Assembly: GCA_000405685.1 (NCBI GenBank)
Contig: ASPF01000025.1
Span: 5,347 to 29,346, forward strand
DNA length: 24,000 nucleotides
Origin: Candidatus Geocrenenecus sp. JGI 0000106-J15
Lineage (GTDB): Archaea > Thermoproteota > Nitrososphaeria_A > Caldarchaeales > Wolframiiraptoraceae
Reading direction: 5' to 3'
Part shown: piece by piece, positions 5,012 to 23,837 of the stretch
Layout of the letters: each line of letters starts with the position of its first letter
Numbering within the stretch: position 1 is the first letter of the stretch
Notes under the pieces: model-generated
Databases searched by the model: none
What the model saw: only the letters and a program-made list of their open reading frames with translations
Told to the model about the DNA's origin: nothing
Made by a program: the position numbers and the translations under genes

Positions 5012-6433
5012 ATGTTTAGAGTTGATGATATCGGTATCCGTCTTCTAAGTTATGGTCCATGTAGTAGAATTAACGGGGTTGAGATAGATCCAGATATATT
5101 AATTGCTCTTGAAGGCTTGGGTACATTTAAAGGTGTAACGATCGAGGAGAGGCTGAATGAGCTTCAAGCTAAGAGTAAGGATCTTAGAGATGTGGCCTCA
5201 AGCATGCATCGAGAATCTACTAGACGGGGACATGCTTCTATTACAACATCCTTGATACTACAGTTTGAAGTAAATCCATGTAGTAGGGCTTCAACACTTC
5301 TACTTGCAGCACAGACATTCGGTTCATATCTACAAGAATCCCAGAGAAGAAGACAAGTAAACAAAGATGAATTCATCATACCTCCAAAGATAAATGATGA
5401 TGAGAAGCTATCAAGTCTATACTATGAAGCAGTTGACTATGTATGGAGATGCTATAAGTCTCTAATTGATAGAGGGACGCCTCTAGAAGATGCACGCTAC
5501 CTACTTCCGATATCCTCTCAAACATCAATATTCGTAACTGGAAGCCTAGAATCGTTCATCTGGCTAATATATTCTTCAGAGAATAGAGATGAGAGATACT
5601 TCCCGATAGAGCTGAAGAAGCTTGGAGAATCAATTAAGAAATTAGCTATGAGTATTTCTCCCCTAATTACTTCTGCCCGCCTCTCTTTCAAGCCTCTACA
5701 CTATGTCTATCCATATCCAGACCTATACAAGACGGAAGACAAGATAATAGAAGAAATAATCAAACGATACCGTGAACCCGACCATCCAATACTGATAGGC
5801 TTCAAAGTAGCTGGAGGTATTGAAGACTTCGTAGAAGAAGCATTAAAGAATCCTGAATACATGAATTCTCTAAACCCATTAATATATGCTTCAACTCTTG
5901 AACCACTCTCAATAGCTGCATATCATCAATCAATAAGACATAGAACTGTACCAACATCTGTTGAATCAATCTATAACGCTATAGAGAGAGCAGGAGGAAG
6001 CATTGAAAAAAATATAATCACTCCACCAACAATAAGATCTAAGGAAGAATCAAGCAAAATATTCAATGAAGCTATCTTTAAACTATTAGAAACTTATTCA
6101 ACTCTAATAAACGAAGATGTACCTCCGTCAGAGGCCATATACTTGTGCCCTCAAGCAGTAAGAATATACACCGTTAGAACCTATAATGCCTTCAACCTAC
6201 TGTGGCCCCAAGGATACATAGGTACAAGGACATGTAGCTATGCTCAATGGGAAGAAAGGATGATAGCTTACAGTATATGGAGGAGTATAGAGAAAGTTTC
6301 ACCGATTATCGGTAGGTTGATGGGAGAGAAGTGTAAACATCTAGGATACTGCCCAGAGAAGAATTGGTGTCAGATAATAAAGAAGTATATTCCAGAATAT
6401 AATGATGAACAACATAAGAAGATGCTGGAGTAG
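5012..6433 (+). CDS. thyX: ThyX-like (flavin-dependent thymidylate synthase family) protein with two tandem ThyX-fold halves
   Basis: Half 1: RGHASITTSLILQFEVNPCSRAS, YLQESQRR, FIIPP, EDARYLLPISSQTSIFVTG. Half 2: YHQSIRHRTVPTSVESIY (RHRxxS motif), IITPP, EAIYLCPQAVRIYTVRTYN, SYAQWEER. At 473 aa it is about twice the usual ThyX length. Confidence 0.6.
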   Translation: MFRVDDIGIRLLSYGPCSRINGVEIDPDILIALEGLGTFKGVTIEERLNELQAKSKDLRDVASSMHRESTRRGHASITTSLILQFEVNPCSRASTLLLAAQTFGSYLQESQRRRQVNKDEFIIPPKINDDEKLSSLYYEAVDYVWRCYKSLIDRGTPLEDARYLLPISSQTSIFVTGSLESFIWLIYSSENRDERYFPIELKKLGESIKKLAMSISPLITSARLSFKPLHYVYPYPDLYKTEDKIIEEIIKRYREPDHPILIGFKVAGGIEDFVEEALKNPEYMNSLNPLIYASTLEPLSIAAYHQSIRHRTVPTSVESIYNAIERAGGSIEKNIITPPTIRSKEESSKIFNEAIFKLLETYSTLINEDVPPSEAIYLCPQAVRIYTVRTYNAFNLLWPQGYIGTRTCSYAQWEERMIAYSIWRSIEKVSPIIGRLMGEKCKHLGYCPEKNWCQIIKKYIPEYNDEQHKKMLE

Positions 6434-6462
6434 AATTCTTGAACTAACTAAGAAGAATGAAT

Positions 6463-7260
6463 TTATTCAAGGCTTACAGGCTCAACTACTCTTCCATCGA
6501 TGATTTTTAACGCTCGAGGAACTACACCGTAGAATCTACATGAGAAGACGGTCTTAAGCTTTCCATTAAAGAGTTCTCCGAAACCTTCTGGATAGGGTTC
6601 ATGTGCTCTAACAAGCATCTCAAGATTATTCTTCTCCATAAAATTGTTGAATGCTCTCCACCCGAATATCTTAGCTCCTCCACCTCTCCAGCTTGGTGCG
6701 AACCATTCAACATCCTCGGATGGATCATTCCACAGTAACTGGAAACCAATACCAGTACGCGGATTCAATTCCCCCTTAGATATACTATTTACTTCATCTA
6801 TCTTCTCTAATCCTTCAGCAACCCCACCATGTACAGCGAATATCTTCTTATGGATTAAGGCAGAATAGGGTAACTTAGAGAAGAGCCTAGCAAAACATTC
6901 ATAGAGTTCAGCGTCATATCTATGATATACAAGATCCATGAATCCGTACCATCTATTCATCTCAACTGTCTCATGGTTCCCCCTCAATATTATCAAGTTA
7001 TCTCTCCAGCTAAGCTTAGATTCTAGAAGCTTAACGATATTCTCCATCTGTCCAGGACCTCTATCAACGTAATCTCCTAGAAAGAGTAGTTTAAGCCCTT
7101 CCTTCTCTGCAATCTTTAAAGCATTACTAGTACTCTCCTCATCTCCATGTGTATCTCCAACAACTAGAAAGCTTCCAGAACTTTGGATTATTAACTGGGG
7201 CTCACTCTCAAAGATAGGCTCAACAGACTCAATCAAACTCTCAATCTCAATCCTACTCAT
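6463..7260 (-). CDS. PPP-family serine/threonine protein phosphatase (PP1-arch type metallophosphoesterase)
   Basis: GDTHGD, GDYVDRG, LRGNHE and VHGG motifs occur in the canonical order. Confidence 0.85.
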   Translation of the reverse strand: MSRIEIESLIESVEPIFESEPQLIIQSSGSFLVVGDTHGDEESTSNALKIAEKEGLKLLFLGDYVDRGPGQMENIVKLLESKLSWRDNLIILRGNHETVEMNRWYGFMDLVYHRYDAELYECFARLFSKLPYSALIHKKIFAVHGGVAEGLEKIDEVNSISKGELNPRTGIGFQLLWNDPSEDVEWFAPSWRGGGAKIFGWRAFNNFMEKNNLEMLVRAHEPYPEGFGELFNGKLKTVFSCRFYGVVPRALKIIDGRVVEPVSLE

Positions 7261-7355
7261 ACACTCTAGAATAGACAGCTCAATCCTATTTAATCAATAT
7301 ATCATAACGTCAAATTTCCGAAAAAATTAATATAATTATTATAGTTATGGATAAC

Positions 7356-8234
7356 CTATTTTTTAAGCACTCTTACGAGGAGGCTGGGTATCTGGGAGGG
7401 TAGTTCAGCTACTTCTACTCCTACTTCTCTGAGTACTTTAATCTTGCTTGCTGCATCTCCTACACCCATAGATATTATTGCTCCTGCATGACCCATCCTC
7501 TTACCTGGTGGAGCAGTCCTACCAGCAACATAAGCTACTACAGGCTTTTCATATCCCTGCTCAACAATATATCTTGCAGCTCTCTCCTCCATATCTCCAC
7601 CTATCTCACCTATCAAGACAACAGCGTCTGTTCCATCATCTTCTCTAAACATCTCTAAAGCATCTATGAACGATGTCCCTGGAACAGGGTCTCCACCTAT
7701 ACCTATAGATGTACTCTGACCTATTCCTGCTTTAGTCATAGCGTACGCTATCTCATATGTAAGGGTACCACTTCTAGAAACTATGCCAACGTGACCTTTA
7801 GAGAATACATGTCCAGGCATGATGCCAACCTTGGATTCTCCAGGAGAAATTACTCCAGGGCAGTTTGGACCAATAATCGTTACACCATTTATTTTAGCAT
7901 ATCTTACAAACTTCATTGTTTCATGTACTGGGATACCTTCAGTAATCACTACGATAAGGTCTAACCCTGCATCTATAGCTTCATAGACTGCGTCTGCCGT
8001 AAATCTTGATGGAACAAAGATTACAGATGTATTCAGTTCTGGATGTCTTCTAACAGCTTCTATAACATTATCATATACTGGTACACCTTCAATAGTTGAT
8101 CCACCTTTACCTGGTGTTACACCTGCAAGAATCTTCGTCCCATAGCTAAGCATAGCTTTTGTATGAAAGCTTCCTTCTCTACCCGTTATCCCTTGAACTA
8201 CAACTCTTGTCTCAGAATCTACAAGCACAGTCAT
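7356..8234 (-). CDS. sucD: Succinyl-CoA synthetase alpha subunit
   Basis: [28 protein letters not shown] and MGHAGAI (phosphohistidine loop). The ATGA overlap at 8231-8234 couples it to sucC. Confidence 0.95.
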
Positions 8235-17512: not shown

Positions 17513-19177
17513 ATGGTTCACTGTTTAAGATTGAGAAAAGTAGTCCAAGTTTTCTTGGTACTCTCGATTTTTGCAACTCTGATCTTAAGTGCGATAAGCG
17601 ATGAATATGGTCCTCCTATGCCGAGCGACGATTTTATAGAGAACGCCGCCGAAGAGTACTTCCTCGAATTAAAACAACCAAAATTTTCACCTGAAGACGA
17701 AGAATTATATGCTGGTCTCGTAGGTTATGAGATTAGGAGAGTTCATAATGTAACTCAAGTGTCATCACCTCGACCGAAGGTTTGTATCTACAATGAGGTT
17801 CTTTTTATTGGACACTGGGAAGAAGGCTCGTATGGTGCGGAAGTATATGGAGACAGACCTATCGGATCGCTTGACCGTTTTTACGATTCGAATGAAGGAG
17901 ATTATTATTGGAAATTCTCTATGGTAGGTGTAGTTGCTTCTGGATACTCAAACATGGGTTTTAAGCCAGGATGGTTTATCAACCCAGATTGGGGGGATAA
18001 GGTTTATGCGTGGTGGTGCTATTCCAAGGATTCGGACGGTAGTGAAGACGATGGCTCTTATGATGGTGAAGATGGTAGCTCTTATGACGGTGAAGACAGT
18101 GTATCAGACGACTTCCCCCTCGAGATTATTGTGGGTCTCACTGTACTTGTTACGGTGATCGCTGGAGTAGGTCTTTTCGTGATATCCCTAGTTTCAGGGA
18201 AGAAGACAGGCTCCATGACAAAAACCCAGATTCACCCGCCGCCACCTCCACCACCATTCTCAGCCGAAGCGGCTCCCCAAGTACAACTTGCAGAACAACC
18301 GTATTCAGAGATCGACCCTGACGTCAAGAGATGGATAGAGAATATCCCTGTGTACCCTGGCTACTGGTATGTCACGCCTGACGGCAAATATGTGACTAAC
18401 ACGATAAATCCTGACTACACGATACCTGTTGAGTGGGTAAAAGGTACATCAACTGAACCACTAGCAGAGCTATTCTCCACACCAGTCCCCAATATGCAGC
18501 ATAGAGTGTTTTCAAGCAGAATAACGGCATTGATAAAACGCAATAACCCTGAGCTCCTCGACAAACTTACTCTAGGCTCATGGCGTAAGCTTGACGGAGA
18601 CCAGCAGAGGAGTGTCTTGGAGAAGTTTGCAGACAATCTAGCGGAGCAAGTGGGGATGCCACAGATAAAAGTAGAACTCGATCCCGAGTTAGATTATGGT
18701 GCCGCATATGACTGGAATTCCAAGCCTCCGAGAATTCTTATCAATCCTAAATCTATGAACTGTCCAGCTGAGGCGATCCGAGTCGTCACCCATGAGTTCC
18801 AGCATTATGTCCAACATACCGCCCCTGAGAAGATAGTCGGCGGCACACCAGAATACATAGACGCATTAAAGAAGAATTGTGATAATTATATCCATCACAG
18901 TGATGATCCTGTACGCTATGCGGGTCAGCTTTGGGAAAGGGATGCAGAAAACATGGCCAGAATAATGCGAGAGAAGATCAACAAGGCGGCATATCGGCAG
19001 AAGCTTGAAGAGCTTGTTGAGGTTGTATGGGGTAAGGAAGGGCTTGAAATTCTCAATAAGCTCAACAAAACAGAAGCTGAGAAAAAGCTCGATAAAATTT
19101 TTGACACTGTTTTCGGTAAGGAAGGGGCCGATATTCTTCCCAGACAGCATCCTTCAAAGAAAGGGCGTAGCAGGTGA
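17513..19177 (+). CDS. Single-pass (type I-like) membrane protein: signal/anchor, aromatic-rich ectodomain, acidic repeats, TM helix, poly-Pro linker, and a cytoplasmic domain with an HExxH minimal-zincin motif
   Basis: N-terminal RLRK plus VVQVFLVLSIFATLILSAIS; DGSEDDGSYDGEDGSSYDGEDSVSDD; TM helix LEIIVGLTVLVTVIAGVGLFVISLV followed by GKKTG (positive-inside); HPPPPPPPF; and PPRILINPKSMNCPAEAIRVVTHEFQHYVQH (HExxH after a beta-strand, like SprT/DUF4157). The C-terminal region has a repeated (W/F)GKEG(L/A)(E/D)IL. The DNA is GC-richer than its flanks. Confidence 0.6.
   Translation: MVHCLRLRKVVQVFLVLSIFATLILSAISDEYGPPMPSDDFIENAAEEYFLELKQPKFSPEDEELYAGLVGYEIRRVHNVTQVSSPRPKVCIYNEVLFIGHWEEGSYGAEVYGDRPIGSLDRFYDSNEGDYYWKFSMVGVVASGYSNMGFKPGWFINPDWGDKVYAWWCYSKDSDGSEDDGSYDGEDGSSYDGEDSVSDDFPLEIIVGLTVLVTVIAGVGLFVISLVSGKKTGSMTKTQIHPPPPPPPFSAEAAPQVQLAEQPYSEIDPDVKRWIENIPVYPGYWYVTPDGKYVTNTINPDYTIPVEWVKGTSTEPLAELFSTPVPNMQHRVFSSRITALIKRNNPELLDKLTLGSWRKLDGDQQRSVLEKFADNLAEQVGMPQIKVELDPELDYGAAYDWNSKPPRILINPKSMNCPAEAIRVVTHEFQHYVQHTAPEKIVGGTPEYIDALKKNCDNYIHHSDDPVRYAGQLWERDAENMARIMREKINKAAYRQKLEELVEVVWGKEGLEILNKLNKTEAEKKLDKIFDTVFGKEGADILPRQHPSKKGRSR
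18050..18094 (+). repeat. Imperfect tandem coding repeat (gatggctcttatgatggtgaa / gatggtagctcttatgacggtgaa) encoding DGSYDGE / DGSSYDGE
   Basis: Read directly. It lies just outside the predicted TM helix. Confidence 0.7.
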
Positions 19178-19181
19178 TATC

Positions 19182-19967
19182 ATGCAGGCAAACCAGATCC
19201 CTTCATGGGTTCCTGAAAAGTCGAGGAAACTGATCTGGAAGATAGCATCTGCGCTTAAAGAGCTTGGATACAGCGAGGGACCCATGCTCTGGGACGCTGC
19301 AAGACGTATGGCCATTACGCCAGCCCTGACCGAAGACATGTTTGCATACATCGCAGCTGGAAAGCCGAAAGTTGAAGCGGGACAGCCGAGTCCCCGCATG
19401 CTCTCGAGACAACTTCCAGGAAACTACACAGTAGCATCCCTCATGCTAGATCTTGGACTGAGCCCTGCAGGCGCCTTCCTACTAGGTGCAGAACTAGTAA
19501 ACAATACTCCAGCCGCCTTAAAGATGATAGAGAAAATGATCGAGGAAGGTTACTGCATAATGCTTCCAGACGGAAAGAGAGCTCTAGTCTATCCACCAAT
19601 CTCAGAAAAATATCCGTCATGTCCTAACTGCGGCATGAGATGGATAAGGAAATATGAGAACTGCCCCACATGCGGATACAACGAGAAATACAAGCAGATC
19701 GACCTCGGCCAGCTTCCAGAAAGTGTAAAAGAGATGATCAGAAAAGAGCTATTGGGGGATATAAGTAAAGGCCCAGACCAGACAGAGAAATGCCCCTCTT
19801 GCGGTGCACCCATAAAAGCTGGGGATAAAATCTGTGAGACCTGCGGTGCGACGGTTAAGCAACCTGTCCAGCGAAGATCCGCACCTCGATTCTGCGAAAA
19901 ATGTGGAGCAAAGCTACGGAAGGGTGCAAGATTCTGTGAAATGTGTGGTGCGCCTGTCCGTGCCTAG
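19182..19967 (+). CDS. Helical N-terminal domain protein with three C-terminal zinc ribbons (CPxCG-type / double-zinc-ribbon-like)
   Basis: ATG 19182 lies 4 nt after the upstream stop (19175-19177). The track ORF from 19005 would overlap the upstream gene by 173 nt. Ribbons: CPNCG-x12-CPTCG; CPSCG-x10-CETCG; CEKCG-x10-CEMCG. Confidence 0.6.
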   Translation: MQANQIPSWVPEKSRKLIWKIASALKELGYSEGPMLWDAARRMAITPALTEDMFAYIAAGKPKVEAGQPSPRMLSRQLPGNYTVASLMLDLGLSPAGAFLLGAELVNNTPAALKMIEKMIEEGYCIMLPDGKRALVYPPISEKYPSCPNCGMRWIRKYENCPTCGYNEKYKQIDLGQLPESVKEMIRKELLGDISKGPDQTEKCPSCGAPIKAGDKICETCGATVKQPVQRRSAPRFCEKCGAKLRKGARFCEMCGAPVRA

Positions 19968-21159: not shown

Positions 21160-22503
21160 CTATTCTTGTTTTTCTAGGATAGCCCACTTAACTCCTTTTC
21201 CTAAATGCTTCGTCTTCTCCCAGAAAACTTCTTTAAATATTTCTTGGTAGAATGCTCTTAATGCTGCGAGCGGCATCATAAAATTCATGTAGTATATCAT
21301 GTGAGGGATATACTTAACCAAAGTTTTCGCCGTGCCTATTTTTTCCAATATTGCTCCAGCTATCCATGTGTAATAGTAGATAACATTAAAAGAGAGAGGA
21401 AGTATTACCCACCATGGGAAAAGGTCTACTGTTAGTTTAAAAGGAACTATACCCAGATATTCAAGTGACCAGTATATCGTCATACTGTATGCAACCCAAT
21501 TTAAGACAACGATTAATGGAGCGATAAGCATAAAGATTATAGATAAAGTATTGATGAACCCTATCCTCCTTGTTACCGAAGGTACAGAAAGCATAATTAG
21601 ATATTTTATGAGACTCTGTATCCACCCTCTAAACCATCTAGTTCTCTGTCTTAGCCAAGCCTTGAAATTTGTAGGAGCTTCTTCCCAATGTCTTGCATCT
21701 ATGACTATCGTCCTCCTCTTAGATAGATAGAATCTTATTGCTACCTCGGCGTCTTCAGCTAGATTTAATGGATCCCATCTACCGATTTCTCTTATCAGAG
21801 ATGCTTTAAAGTAGTTTCCAGTCCCACCTAATGGTGTGTATAAACCTAGTTTTGATCTTCCATTAAGCATCACCCTAAACCATCCTGCATACTCCATTGA
21901 AAACATCTTCGTTATCCAGTTATCTTCTTGGTTACTTATACGTAGGATTACCTGTACAGATTCTATGTTGTAGTTCTCAATTGCAGATGCAACCTTCAAG
22001 AATGTATCATGCTCAGGTATATCTTCTACATCTATGATACCTATTATTTCCCCTGTACATAGAGAGAGTGAATCGTTTAATGCACTAGGCTTTGTGGCGA
22101 AGTATGCTCTCCTAACCAATGGTTTAACATTTCTTGGGTAGAGCTGAGAGTACCATGTTGCTATTCTCTCTCCTACAGGATCCTCTGTTACAATTACTAT
22201 TTCCTTGCTATCTCTCGGATATTCTATATGGTTTAAGCAGACATCAATCGTTCTAGAAAGGATCGGCTCATCCCTGGCTGGTAGTATGAGAGAAATCTTA
22301 GAATGTCTCCGTGGATTTACTCCAGGATTAAAAGGTCTCTTTAACCCATATGTTATAATTATGATGTGGTAAACTCCCCATAAAGTGTAGATTAATGTGA
22401 GGCTATAAGCAATAAATAGGAGTGATGGTTTAGGGAGTATAATTAAGGCTAATAGTAGTATCGAGACAGAGGCTAAGAAGACTATGGGTCTAGTTCTCAT
22501 CAT
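21160..22503 (-). CDS. Membrane-embedded processive family-2 glycosyltransferase (cellulose/chitin/PNAG-synthase-like)
   Basis: Two N-terminal TM helices, then a GT-A domain (ILPARDE, IIDVEDIP as the DxD-like motif, LAEDAEV as the ED motif) and QRTRWFRGW (the Q(R/Q)xRW processivity motif), then about 4 C-terminal TM helices. Confidence 0.8.
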   Translation of the reverse strand: MMRTRPIVFLASVSILLLALIILPKPSLLFIAYSLTLIYTLWGVYHIIIITYGLKRPFNPGVNPRRHSKISLILPARDEPILSRTIDVCLNHIEYPRDSKEIVIVTEDPVGERIATWYSQLYPRNVKPLVRRAYFATKPSALNDSLSLCTGEIIGIIDVEDIPEHDTFLKVASAIENYNIESVQVILRISNQEDNWITKMFSMEYAGWFRVMLNGRSKLGLYTPLGGTGNYFKASLIREIGRWDPLNLAEDAEVAIRFYLSKRRTIVIDARHWEEAPTNFKAWLRQRTRWFRGWIQSLIKYLIMLSVPSVTRRIGFINTLSIIFMLIAPLIVVLNWVAYSMTIYWSLEYLGIVPFKLTVDLFPWWVILPLSFNVIYYYTWIAGAILEKIGTAKTLVKYIPHMIYYMNFMMPLAALRAFYQEIFKEVFWEKTKHLGKGVKWAILEKQE

Positions 22504-23467
22504 TCATAACTACACTATGTAGAGAGGTAAGCTCTCGTATAATCTTATCTTTCGAACTCTCTAAATCATCTATTTTTATTATTTTAATCTTCTCTGGATT
22601 CAGTATCTTCTCAAGCTCAGGTTTAAAATCAGAAGGTAAAATTAAGAACATAATTGAGTTTGGTACGTCTACAGCTTCGATCACCATCATGAATGGGTAT
22701 CTCTCATCTATTTCTCCACTTAAGCCAAATTCTACAATTATAGATGGGCTACCATCAATAAATATCGGTATGGTGTATGTTGTTCCACTTATACCTTTAA
22801 CGTGCTTAAATCCTTCAGCTCTTAGACCATGTAATGTAAGTTCTCTAACTAAGTCTTCTACAACATTATAGATTGGCAGTAGCTTCTTAATCTCATTCGA
22901 TAACTTGTAGATTGGATATTTCTTAATCGTTAATTCATCTACTTTATTTTTATGTCCTTTCTCACAGATTAACCAGATTAACGGTATCTGGAAGATCGAT
23001 CTACAATCTCTGCAGATATAGCCGAAGCCTGGTCTACCATAATCGATCCCAACTCTCTTTAATTCTTTCCCACATTTTGGGCATCTATACAGCCTCGACT
23101 GGCTCTGCATAAATTCTTCTTCTGAACCCATATAGTTACAATCATAGTGTACCATTAACTCTTTCTTCTCAATGTTGTTTGAGCTGCAGTCAGGGCAGAC
23201 TATCAATGGTCGGATGCAGACATCCTCACATATATTGCATGCTGGTAGAGAAACATCTTTCACTACTTCTATGTAGCCTCTTTCTAGATAGTATTTCATC
23301 TTCTCCTCGGGTACTTCTATACCGAATAAGTCATAAACTACACCCAGCCCTTGCCTAATCTCTGGTTTAAACTCTACATCCCTATTTTCAGTTGTCGCTC
23401 TATATGCTGATGAAAAGAAATGCTTATCGAGAGACTCCGCCCAATGGTATATCTTTGATACCTCCAA
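22490..23467 (-). CDS. Multi-zinc-ribbon protein, TackOD1-like, with an uncharacterised C-terminal alpha/beta domain
   Basis: CNIC..x10..CPDC, HYDCNYMGSEEEF, CPKCGKELKRVGIDYGRPGFGYICRDC..FQIP..ICEKGH, then GISGTTYTIPIFIDG. TTG start with a TTTATAT box about 24 nt upstream. The 3' end overlaps the GT2 gene start by 14 nt. Confidence 0.5.
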   Translation of the reverse strand: MEVSKIYHWAESLDKHFFSSAYRATTENRDVEFKPEIRQGLGVVYDLFGIEVPEEKMKYYLERGYIEVVKDVSLPACNICEDVCIRPLIVCPDCSSNNIEKKELMVHYDCNYMGSEEEFMQSQSRLYRCPKCGKELKRVGIDYGRPGFGYICRDCRSIFQIPLIWLICEKGHKNKVDELTIKKYPIYKLSNEIKKLLPIYNVVEDLVRELTLHGLRAEGFKHVKGISGTTYTIPIFIDGSPSIIVEFGLSGEIDERYPFMMVIEAVDVPNSIMFLILPSDFKPELEKILNPEKIKIIKIDDLESSKDKIIRELTSLHSVVMNDEN

Positions 23468-23624
23468 ATATAAGATACAATATGCTAAGACATATAAATT
23501 CTTAACGCTACCTTACAATATTGTTTTTACTTTTCTGCACCAGAGTAGCGGATGACTGCAAAAATGTTAATTATAAAATAGTGTTTAGATGCGCCTCTTT
23601 GCAGATCTGTAATTCTTGGAGATA

Positions 23625-23837
23625 CTATTTCTCTCTTTCTTTTAGTTGTCTATCTTCCACGTATATTCCTGTTATAAACATCTTGCTTGAACCGCATTTC
23701 GGGCATTTCTCTTCTACTTCTTTGAAGACATAGTCTCCGTCTCTAAATGGTCTAGAGTTCTCAGTATTACATGAGAAGCACGTTAGATGCGTTAACGGCT
23801 GGATAAATTCTCTAAATTGCGGTCTCTGTGGAAACAT
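23625..23837 (-). CDS. Small zinc-ribbon protein (CxxC...CxxC), function unknown
   Basis: 70-aa ORF containing CFSCN-x22-CPKCG. It is on the same strand as the downstream Zn-ribbon/GT2 genes. Confidence 0.4.
   Translation of the reverse strand: MFPQRPQFREFIQPLTHLTCFSCNTENSRPFRDGDYVFKEVEEKCPKCGSSKMFITGIYVEDRQLKEREK

Follow-up and report, generated by a model that had tools for sequence, protein, structure and literature searches.

We analysed a 24,000-nucleotide stretch of DNA from the archaeon Candidatus Geocrenenecus sp. JGI 0000106-J15 (GenBank assembly GCA_000405685.1, contig ASPF01000025.1, positions 5,347 to 29,346; hereafter, the window), in which a gene for a zinc-ribbon protein of the TackOD1 family (the partner) overlaps a gene for a membrane glycosyltransferase of family 2 (GT2). 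The two genes stand together, in the same order and on the same strand, across the Nitrososphaeria, and the GT2 is a cellulose-synthase-like membrane enzyme of the BcsA and hyaluronan synthase (HAS) type, outside the clade of dolichol-phosphate sugar transferases. A functional linkage of some kind between the two proteins is very likely. More specifically, we propose, with a probability of roughly 0.5, that the partner serves a beta-glycan synthase as a dedicated subunit in the cytoplasm, with an accessory or regulatory role. The class of the GT2 was already known, as was TackOD1, a domain that had not been characterised. Three things seem to be new: one TackOD1 subfamily is paired class-wide with a BcsA/HAS-like synthase, the TackOD1 family contains a dead nuclease fold resembling that of Mrr, and different TackOD1 subfamilies adjoin different surface-structure machines (pili and glycan synthases).

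Two overlapping genes and a candidate promoter

The genes, their junction and the domains and motifs discussed below are as follows (window positions, all on the reverse strand).

22490..23467, reverse strand: gene of the TackOD1-family partner, 325 aa (open reading frame with a TTG start; Pfam TackOD1)
21160..22503, reverse strand: gene of the membrane GT2, 447 aa (open reading frame with an ATG start; Pfam, AlphaFold2 and Foldseek)
22490..22503, reverse strand: overlap of the partner stop with the GT2 ATG, 14 nt (open reading frame coordinates), a putative translational-coupling junction
23492..23500, reverse strand: TATA-like box AATTTATAT, a putative promoter element read directly from the sequence
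23273..23467, reverse strand: N-terminal domain of the partner, residues 1-65, shortened and winged-helix-like (alignment, weak profile matches, AlphaFold2 secondary structure)
22901..23272, reverse strand: TackOD1 zinc-ribbon core of the partner, residues 66-189 (Pfam; alignments of 23 orthologues and of 44 sequences)
22493..22900, reverse strand: C-terminal domain of the partner, residues 190-325, probably an inactivated Mrr-like PD-(D/E)xK fold (Foldseek, hhalign, residue census)
21619..22326, reverse strand: GT-A catalytic domain of the GT2, residues 60-295 (alignments of 26 orthologues and with BcsA)
21634..21648, reverse strand: QRTRW motif of the GT2, residues 286-290 (orthologue and BcsA alignments)
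21193..21222, reverse strand: C-terminal cytoplasmic motif W428-E-K-T-x-H-x-G-x-G437 of the GT2 (invariant in 26 orthologues)

Both proteins have their closest relatives in Candidatus Geocrenenecus (Wolframiiraptoraceae; Caldarchaeales/'Aigarchaeota'). The 14-nt overlap between the TackOD1 stop and the GT2 start, which had been noticed in an original prediction made from the sequence of the window, is borne out by the coordinates of the two reading frames. Starting the GT2 at its second ATG, as the database protein P0027 (446 aa) does, shortens the overlap to 11 nt. The TATA-like box is centred ~28 nt upstream of the partner's TTG, a geometry typical for an archaeal promoter, and boxes of this kind lie 25-45 nt upstream in most orthologous loci. 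This suggests that the pair has a promoter of its own, from which a leaderless bicistronic mRNA would be made.

No operator common to all clades was found upstream of the operon, where we saw only TATA-like boxes and clade-specific palindromes. The palindrome of Nitrosocaldus, GTTACAnnTGTAAC, lies ~60-75 nt upstream of the partner start and just upstream of the TATA-like box (L032 and L034), and that of Wolframiiraptor, ACCCC-N5-GGGGT, ~10-30 nt upstream of the partner, between TATA box and start codon (L012 and L014). These palindromes could be operators or hairpins in the 5' RNA.

The pair is closely preceded, on its own strand, by an open reading frame of 70 aa (23625-23837, reverse strand) with a CxxC...CPKC zinc ribbon. 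Its relatives were found at 93% in L009, at 72% in L010, where the homologue lies 2.4 kb from the pair, and at 52% in L003. Because its conservation is limited to close relatives, we rejected it as a third component of the module.

The pairing is conserved across Nitrososphaeria

The original prediction had staked the partnership on a conserved linkage of TackOD1 and GT2 genes in other genomes, and such a linkage is what we observed. A reference scan with one genome per species returned 37 loci spanning Caldarchaeales, Wolframiiraptoraceae, Nitrosocaldales, Nitrososphaerales and 'Nitrosopumilales'. A GT2 orthologue (50-87% identity by tblastn) lies directly downstream and on the same strand in 33 of them. 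Two of the four exceptions stop at a contig end, so that the pairing holds for 33 of the 35 loci retaining downstream DNA. No GT2 adjoins the remaining two, L043 and L044, which are the paralogues farthest off (29-32% identity); they keep the same architecture in a different conserved context, with a gene for a membrane-anchored protease of the sedolisin/pro-kumamolisin type before the partner paralogue and a ribonucleotide-reductase-small-chain-like (ferritin-like) gene after it (L043:2879-4728 and L044:4959-6811).

Six independent neighbourhoods, with partner identities from 65% down to 32%, all have the TackOD1 gene followed by a same-strand GT2 of 447-510 aa that matches both PF13641 and PF13632. 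The reciprocal test gave the same picture: starting from GT2 orthologues of 48% and 55% identity, a TackOD1 gene was found directly upstream in both cases. The genes around the pair are unrelated between lineages, while the pair itself, its order, strand and overlap are kept down to ~30% partner identity. When 36 loci were inspected, the best-supported GT2 start gave an overlap of 0-23 nt in nearly all, usually 11-23 nt; 14 nt is the commonest value, also in the window's own clade. For two of the 36 the GT2 start is ambiguous, with a possible gap of 10-13 nt instead.

The pair was also duplicated and retained as one unit. In L037, a metagenome-assembled genome (MAG) from Centralia labelled Crenarchaeota, the whole pair occurs twice in tandem (L037:1433-3717 and L037:4908-7217), the copies being separated by a TenA/THI-4 gene. 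The partners of the two copies are 44% identical and the GT2s 72%, and from this presence of diverged copies of the whole pair we conclude that each synthase retained its own partner.

In L052, a Nitrososphaerales MAG, a gene at 5298-7988 overlaps the end of the GT2 gene and encodes an 896-aa surface protein with an N-terminal signal or anchor, a C-terminal anchor and a polysaccharide deacetylase domain of carbohydrate esterase family 4 (CE4) at about residues 524-764. By analogy, this arrangement resembles PgaC-PgaB and IcaA-IcaB and may hint at a polymer product. We rejected the deacetylase as a regular third gene; among the fetched loci it occurs in L052 only, with a distant homologue in L049. 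One lineage of Nitrososphaerota has a gene for an NAD-dependent sugar epimerase/dehydratase upstream of the pair (L004:4581-5531 and L005:4674-5639) and a gene for a DUF998 membrane protein downstream of it (L004:8601-9152 and L005:8513-9064). The GT2 of this lineage is longer (507-513 aa), with a C-terminal extension of ~60 residues whose end is an additional hydrophobic segment.

A membrane GT2 of the BcsA/HAS type

The original prediction had placed the membrane protein among the processive GT2 synthases by its QRxRW motif, with the dolichyl-phosphate sugar transferases as the clade that would speak against this. The motif is indeed present, as QRTRW, and the comparison with the other clade favours BcsA in both sequence and fold. 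Pfam gives matches to Glyco_trans_2_3 (PF13632, E-value 5e-20) and Glyco_tranf_2_3 (PF13641, 2e-19), and NCBIfam sub-threshold matches only, to EpsU, PgaC/IcaA, NodC and CelA. In a profile search against the sequences of the PDB, BcsA came first (1.5e-12), as against 2.6e-3 for a dolichol-phosphate mannose synthase (DPMS; 5mlz), which matches residues 66-177 only. The alignment with BcsA is in register, E250-D251 falling on TED and QRTRW on QQRGRW, and it runs on into the membrane region. PcManGT (6YV7), a mannosyltransferase of archaea, comes next and aligns only over the N-terminal half of the GT-A domain (residues 54-186 of the GT2 profile). Across the 26 orthologues, D108, D158/E160/D161, E204-Y205, the stretch PLGGTGNY at 224-231 (starting with P224), E250-D251 and Q286-R-x-R-W290 are invariant.

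The AlphaFold2 model of the GT2 (predicted local distance difference test, pLDDT, 89; predicted template modelling score, pTM, 0.88) has two N-terminal transmembrane (TM) helices, the GT-A domain, a long interface helix that starts at QRTRW, and about four C-terminal TM helices. Its first 23 Foldseek matches are BcsA, CvHAS, XlHAS1 and PcManGT, with E-values from 2.7e-16 to 7e-13. Soluble GT-A enzymes appear only from 5e-10 onward, and the top 50 contain no dolichol- or polyprenol-phosphate sugar transferase of the DPMS, GtrB or ArnC type. It is on the profile search, with BcsA first, and on these fold matches that our assignment of the class rests.

PcManGT, whose target-normalised TM-score in the fold comparison is 0.72, is also the sole phmmer match of the GT2 in the PDB, and several GT2 orthologues match PF13506 as well (Glyco_transf_21, the ceramide glucosyltransferase family). 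We found ~185 clusters of GT2 orthologues, and of the listed matches the minority that bear a source name include none from Nitrosopumilus; the enzyme is therefore probably neither a general synthase of glycosylated glycerol dialkyl glycerol tetraethers (GDGTs) nor a universal housekeeping protein. Its WEKTxH motif may correspond to FxVTxK, the loop that gates cellulose synthases, although the last 63 residues gave only irrelevant matches among PDB sequences. We found no relevant literature on exopolysaccharide GT2s of thaumarchaea.

A partner of three domains

The TackOD1 identity of the partner had been predicted from its cysteine pattern, and the Pfam profile fully supports it: PF18551 matches with 89.5 bits (E-value 2.7e-25; gathering cut-off 32), residues 56-188 aligning with profile positions 55-187 of 188. 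The protein has 26 full-length homologues at 32-99% identity. It has no TM segment, is acidic (net charge -9, isoelectric point 5.5) and is cytoplasmic. Its AlphaFold2 model has a pLDDT of 83 and a pTM of 0.66.

The array of Cys and His residues in the core reads C77xxC80, C91PxC94, H107xxC110, C129PKC132, C152xxC155 and C168xxxH172, and is accompanied by G140-I-D-Y143, F159xxP162 and, in the C-terminal domain, G225xS227G228. The predicted pattern is thus present save for one spacing, since the second element reads H-x-x-C-x-Y-x-G-x-E-x-x-F, one residue longer before F119. All 12 metal ligands are invariant in 23 orthologues, and eight of them in the 44-sequence alignment of the wider family; a loop GIDYGRPG (residues 140-147) is invariant too. 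Provisionally, and grouping the ligands by their order in the sequence, we assign them to three zinc sites: C77/C80/C91/C94, H107/C110/C129/C132 and C152/C155/C168/H172. The original description of TackOD1 gives five CxxC and one HxxC (PMC5847659). The set found here, four CxxC, HxxC and CxxxH, is a minor variation on it, as only the last pair is C-x3-H and not CxxC.

The first 65 residues of the partner are a possible winged-helix remnant. A profile of this region from the wider family matches the helix-turn-helix (HTH) of the Lrp/AsnC regulator PH0061 weakly (E-value 0.011) and, also weakly, the winged helices of RPA and SelB (0.1-2). In the GT2-linked partners, ~7 residues of the putative helix 2 are deleted in the alignment relative to other TackOD1 subfamilies. 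No HTH family of Pfam was matched by the window partner, nor was any among the families listed in a scan of 122 family representatives described below.

The C-terminal domain had been described in the original prediction as an alpha/beta domain with a G-x-S-G motif. The motif is there, at residues 225-228; the domain around it is better read as a degenerate Mrr-like fold. Nearly all its Foldseek matches are proteins of the PD-(D/E)xK nuclease fold (AF1548, NucS, XisH, the nuclease domains of Can2/Card1/Cdn1, R2 endonuclease, McrC, MspJI and Hjc), though all are weak, with E-values of 1e-3 or worse. Longer relatives of the partner carry Pfam Mrr_cat (and NA-iREase1), and in one of them, P0202, the Mrr_cat match falls exactly where the partner's C-terminal domain aligns. 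When this domain was aligned by hhalign with the Mrr_cat-positive copies of relatives, the probability was 93.3% and the E-value 2.6e-7.

The family signature is G-[RK]-S-G-x2-H-x2-D, and it is its Asp that the GT2-linked group has lost. The position is Pro234 in the window partner and Pro in 20 of the 26 GT2-linked orthologues, and Asp in none of them, while 40 of 107 members of other subfamilies retain the Asp. The beta-3 strand, IIVEFGL, has no (D/E)xK lysine. Nuclease activity is therefore unlikely, and we rejected an active nuclease on account of these missing catalytic residues. We likewise rejected GxSG as a serine-hydrolase or nucleotide-binding motif, since it is the 'G-x-S-G ... D' loop of the Mrr type. 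The likeliest reading of the domain is an inactivated module of the Mrr type.

The wider TackOD1 family

An exhaustive profile search found 1,997 representative clusters at an E-value of 1e-3 or below, 1,482 of them at 1e-10 or below; a word-indexed search with the broad 44-sequence profile returned 29 proteins, nearly all of them already known. In most clusters the match extends over the C-terminal domain. Three-part proteins are thus the rule in the family, which reaches ~130 residues past the Pfam model; the model itself spans the front half only. We scanned 122 representatives from outside the GT2-linked orthologue group with Pfam (the 25 most frequent of 40 families are listed). TackOD1 itself is present in 120 of the 122, Mrr_cat in 14, the response-regulator receiver domain (REC, Response_reg) in six, NA-iREase1 in four and a UDP-glucose/GDP-mannose dehydrogenase in one. 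This last domain is N-terminal in P0245 (L045:83-2314), a 743-aa protein forming a single cluster, and is followed by a full TackOD1 and Mrr-like module. To judge from its domains, P0245 is an independent link of the family to nucleotide-sugar metabolism. The genes around it gave no further indication.

Two informative neighbourhoods were sampled from other TackOD1 subfamilies. In one, the gene is flanked by type IV pilus genes (T2SSF/T2SSE/T2SSF); in the other, it stands among genes for REC proteins, a histidine kinase, a CE4 deacetylase, a chitin-synthase-like GT2 and a pilin. TackOD1 (arCOG06883) has been linked to type IV pilus loci before (PMC4858521). In its defining paper, it is among the few archaeal response-regulator output domains that occur in several phyla, and its function is called 'obscure' (PMC5847659); stand-alone forms are listed there as well (Galperin et al., 2018). 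The indexed literature holds no description of the GT2-linked group, of the C-terminal Mrr-like domain or of the winged-helix-like N-terminus.

Comparison with known systems

BcsA with PilZ and PgaC with PgaD offer the closest parallels in organisation: as in our pair, a membrane GT2 of the same fold, with D, DxD, TED and QxxRW, shares its transcription unit with a partner element, cytoplasmic or small, that is dedicated to it. They differ in the nature of that element, which here is a separate soluble protein of 325 aa with a winged-helix-like domain, three putative zinc sites and an apparently dead Mrr-like fold. The partner has no match to PilZ, PgaD or GIL in Pfam or NCBIfam, and the resemblance is one of functional analogy only. 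BcsA is gated by cyclic di-GMP, signalling by which, to our knowledge, has not been established in these archaea. A further analogy, and only that, is the N-terminal zinc domain of plant CesA, which is likewise cytoplasmic, rich in CxxC and associated with a processive-type GT2, and which mediates CesA oligomerisation. It is RING-like and fused to the synthase, whereas our partner is a separate polypeptide of unrelated zinc-ribbon topology.

Size and topology relate the GT2 to the class I HAS (Chlorella virus HAS and Xenopus HAS1), NodC and the chitin synthases. HAS gives a strong fold match (Foldseek E-value 5e-15) at an identity of only ~13-16%. Enzymes of the HAS type are, like this GT2, stand-alone and need no outer-membrane export apparatus, but HAS, NodC and chitin synthases lack an obligatory co-encoded cytoplasmic partner. 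Among solved structures, that of PcManGT from Pyrobaculum calidifontis came closest in a single-sequence search; like the GT2, PcManGT is a membrane enzyme of TACK archaea with a cellulose-synthase-like fold. With 356 aa and a 'minimal' fold, it is smaller, and no TackOD1 partner of it is known; its reported role is in the assembly of N-glycans (Gandini et al., 2020, as cited in PMC8993221).

On the side of the partner, the response-regulator output domain TackOD1 (PF18551, arCOG06883) has the same Cys/His ligands, and published descriptions cover ~200 aa, while the window protein is a stand-alone one of 325 aa with additional domains. The nearest known domains to its C-terminal part are Mrr_cat (PF04471) and the inactive restriction-endonuclease domain NA-iREase1 (PF22722): it has the PD-(D/E)xK fold and is homologous to Mrr_cat-type domains of relatives, but lacks the catalytic Asp and the (D/E)xK lysine.

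Proposed function and alternatives

Our proposal is that the pair is a module in itself, transcribed together, coupled in translation and conserved across Nitrososphaeria. The GT2, an inverting enzyme, would use a nucleotide sugar to make a beta-linked glycan, polymer or oligomer, that is passed across the membrane. The partner would be made in step with the synthase, bind its cytoplasmic face as a dedicated subunit and control its activity or assembly, in a logic like that of PilZ, PgaD or the CesA zinc domain and with unrelated domains. In this scheme we infer the interaction, the regulation at the protein level, the processivity and the product. The partner fits protein binding better than DNA binding, because it has lost part of helix 2 and the nuclease Asp and is acidic. 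The TackOD1 family, with its pilus-adjoining subfamilies and REC fusions, fits a signal-output module on membrane machines.

Several points weigh against this proposal. Processivity does not follow from the fold, because the non-polymerising PcManGT shares it, and QxxRW is no proof of it either, as glucosylceramide synthases carry (Q/R)xxRW. TackOD1 was found fused to a GT2 neither among 10 long members nor among the families listed for the 122 representatives. With a pTM of 0.66, the arrangement of the partner's domains is uncertain, and its GxSG loop, which both L037 partners lack, can be essential neither as a ligand nor as a catalytic site among the GT2-linked proteins. Moreover, the succession of winged-helix-like, zinc-ribbon and Mrr-like domains appears to mirror the DNA-binding enzyme Mrr, the REC fusions would suit a transcription factor, and autoregulated operons that start with the regulator and have overlapping genes do exist.

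These last points lead to an explanation that we consider unlikely but worth serious attention: the partner would be a domesticated protein of the Mrr type that binds DNA as a transcription factor and autoregulates the bicistronic operon and hence GT2 expression, and the adjacency of the genes would be that of a regulator and its target. Mrr combines a winged helix with Mrr_cat, to which the C-terminal domain is homologous, and the wider-family N-terminus does resemble, if weakly, the HTH of PH0061 and the winged helices of RPA and SelB. Yet this winged-helix signal is marginal and corresponds to no HTH family of Pfam, and in the GT2-linked subfamily it is precisely the putative helix 2 that is shortened. 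The protein is acidic, and its N-terminal domain is not basic. The promoter palindromes of Nitrosocaldus and Wolframiiraptor would suit an operator, but none is common across clades, and in L037 each duplicated GT2 retained its own diverged partner. REC-TackOD1 response regulators exist, both in our scan and in the literature, although archaea are reported to have few response regulators that bind DNA (PMC5847659). That the adjacency is inherited synteny without shared function, the partner acting elsewhere, for instance in nucleic-acid metabolism, we regard as very improbable. The nuclease fold of the C-terminal domain would agree with it, as would the nearest paralogues outside the pairing (L043 and L044), which adjoin the ribonucleotide-reductase-like gene and not a GT2. 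Against this, the catalytic residues of that fold are missing, the pair was duplicated and kept as a unit, and pair, order, strand and overlap persist where the flanking genes differ completely.

On a separate axis from the transcription factor lies the question of the acceptor. The GT2 could be directed to lipids or carriers, glycosylating archaeol or GDGT lipids or a dolichol-linked precursor of N-glycans, with TackOD1 as its accessory factor or regulator; we find this doubtful. PcManGT is among the best fold matches, with the largest share of its own length covered, as well as the sole phmmer match in the PDB, and the orthologues that match PF13506 point the same way. A GT2 identity of 48-87% throughout the class suits a housekeeping function better than a variable exopolysaccharide, and most loci have no dedicated export or polymer-modifying genes beside the pair. 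The sequence alignment with PcManGT, however, is limited to the GT-A half, whereas that with BcsA extends through TED, QxxRW and the TM region, and the ~six TM helices are those of a HAS and exceed those of the 'minimal' PcManGT. The distribution in ~185 clusters, with no Nitrosopumilus name among the listed matches, the NCBIfam near-misses to EpsU, PgaC/IcaA and NodC, and the CE4 deacetylase co-encoded in L052 speak for a synthase instead.

If the partner is indeed a subunit that regulates the synthase, this would be the first control mechanism described for an archaeal BcsA/HAS-like enzyme, and it would open a way to study how Nitrososphaeria, among them relatives of the ammonia oxidisers, make glycans or biofilms. 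Already the synthase-type GT2 provides a first specific functional context for the orphan TackOD1 domain, and the pair, being small and self-contained, is amenable to heterologous expression and direct testing. A broader reading, which we advance tentatively and hold to be improbable, is that proteins combining TackOD1 and the iREase-type module are general cytoplasmic adaptors of archaea that dock on the membrane machines of surface structures, be they type IV pilus ATPase/platform complexes or BcsA/HAS-like synthases, and are switched by signals. The signal could be phosphorylation, in the REC-fused forms, or a metal, redox state or small molecule sensed at the zinc core or the dead nuclease pocket. 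Such adaptors would be a counterpart of the bacterial PilZ receptors, which serve both pili and cellulose synthase, and would have evolved from an Mrr-like restriction enzyme.

Other features of the window

The rest of the window holds housekeeping genes, including those for ribosomal protein S26e, succinyl-CoA ligase, ThyX, an aminoacyl-tRNA synthetase of the TyrRS/TrpRS type and methionine aminopeptidase. One region (17513-19967, forward strand) stands out by its G+C content of 0.48, against ~0.37 around it, and may have been horizontally acquired. It contains two open reading frames. The first, of 554 aa, has an acidic repeat rich in Gly, Ser and Asp, a TM segment, a poly-proline run and a metalloprotease-like motif, THEFQH; its only match is a faint one to Peptidase_M78. 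The second carries, C-terminally, several double zinc ribbons (DZR, Zn_Ribbon_1). Its listed TTG start at 19005 overlaps the 554-aa frame, and the true start is probably a later ATG (MQANQ...). The ThyX protein (5012-6433, forward strand) is, with 473 aa, about twice the usual length and gives two separate matches to the Thy1 model, which points to a flavin-dependent thymidylate synthase that arose by internal duplication or by fusion.

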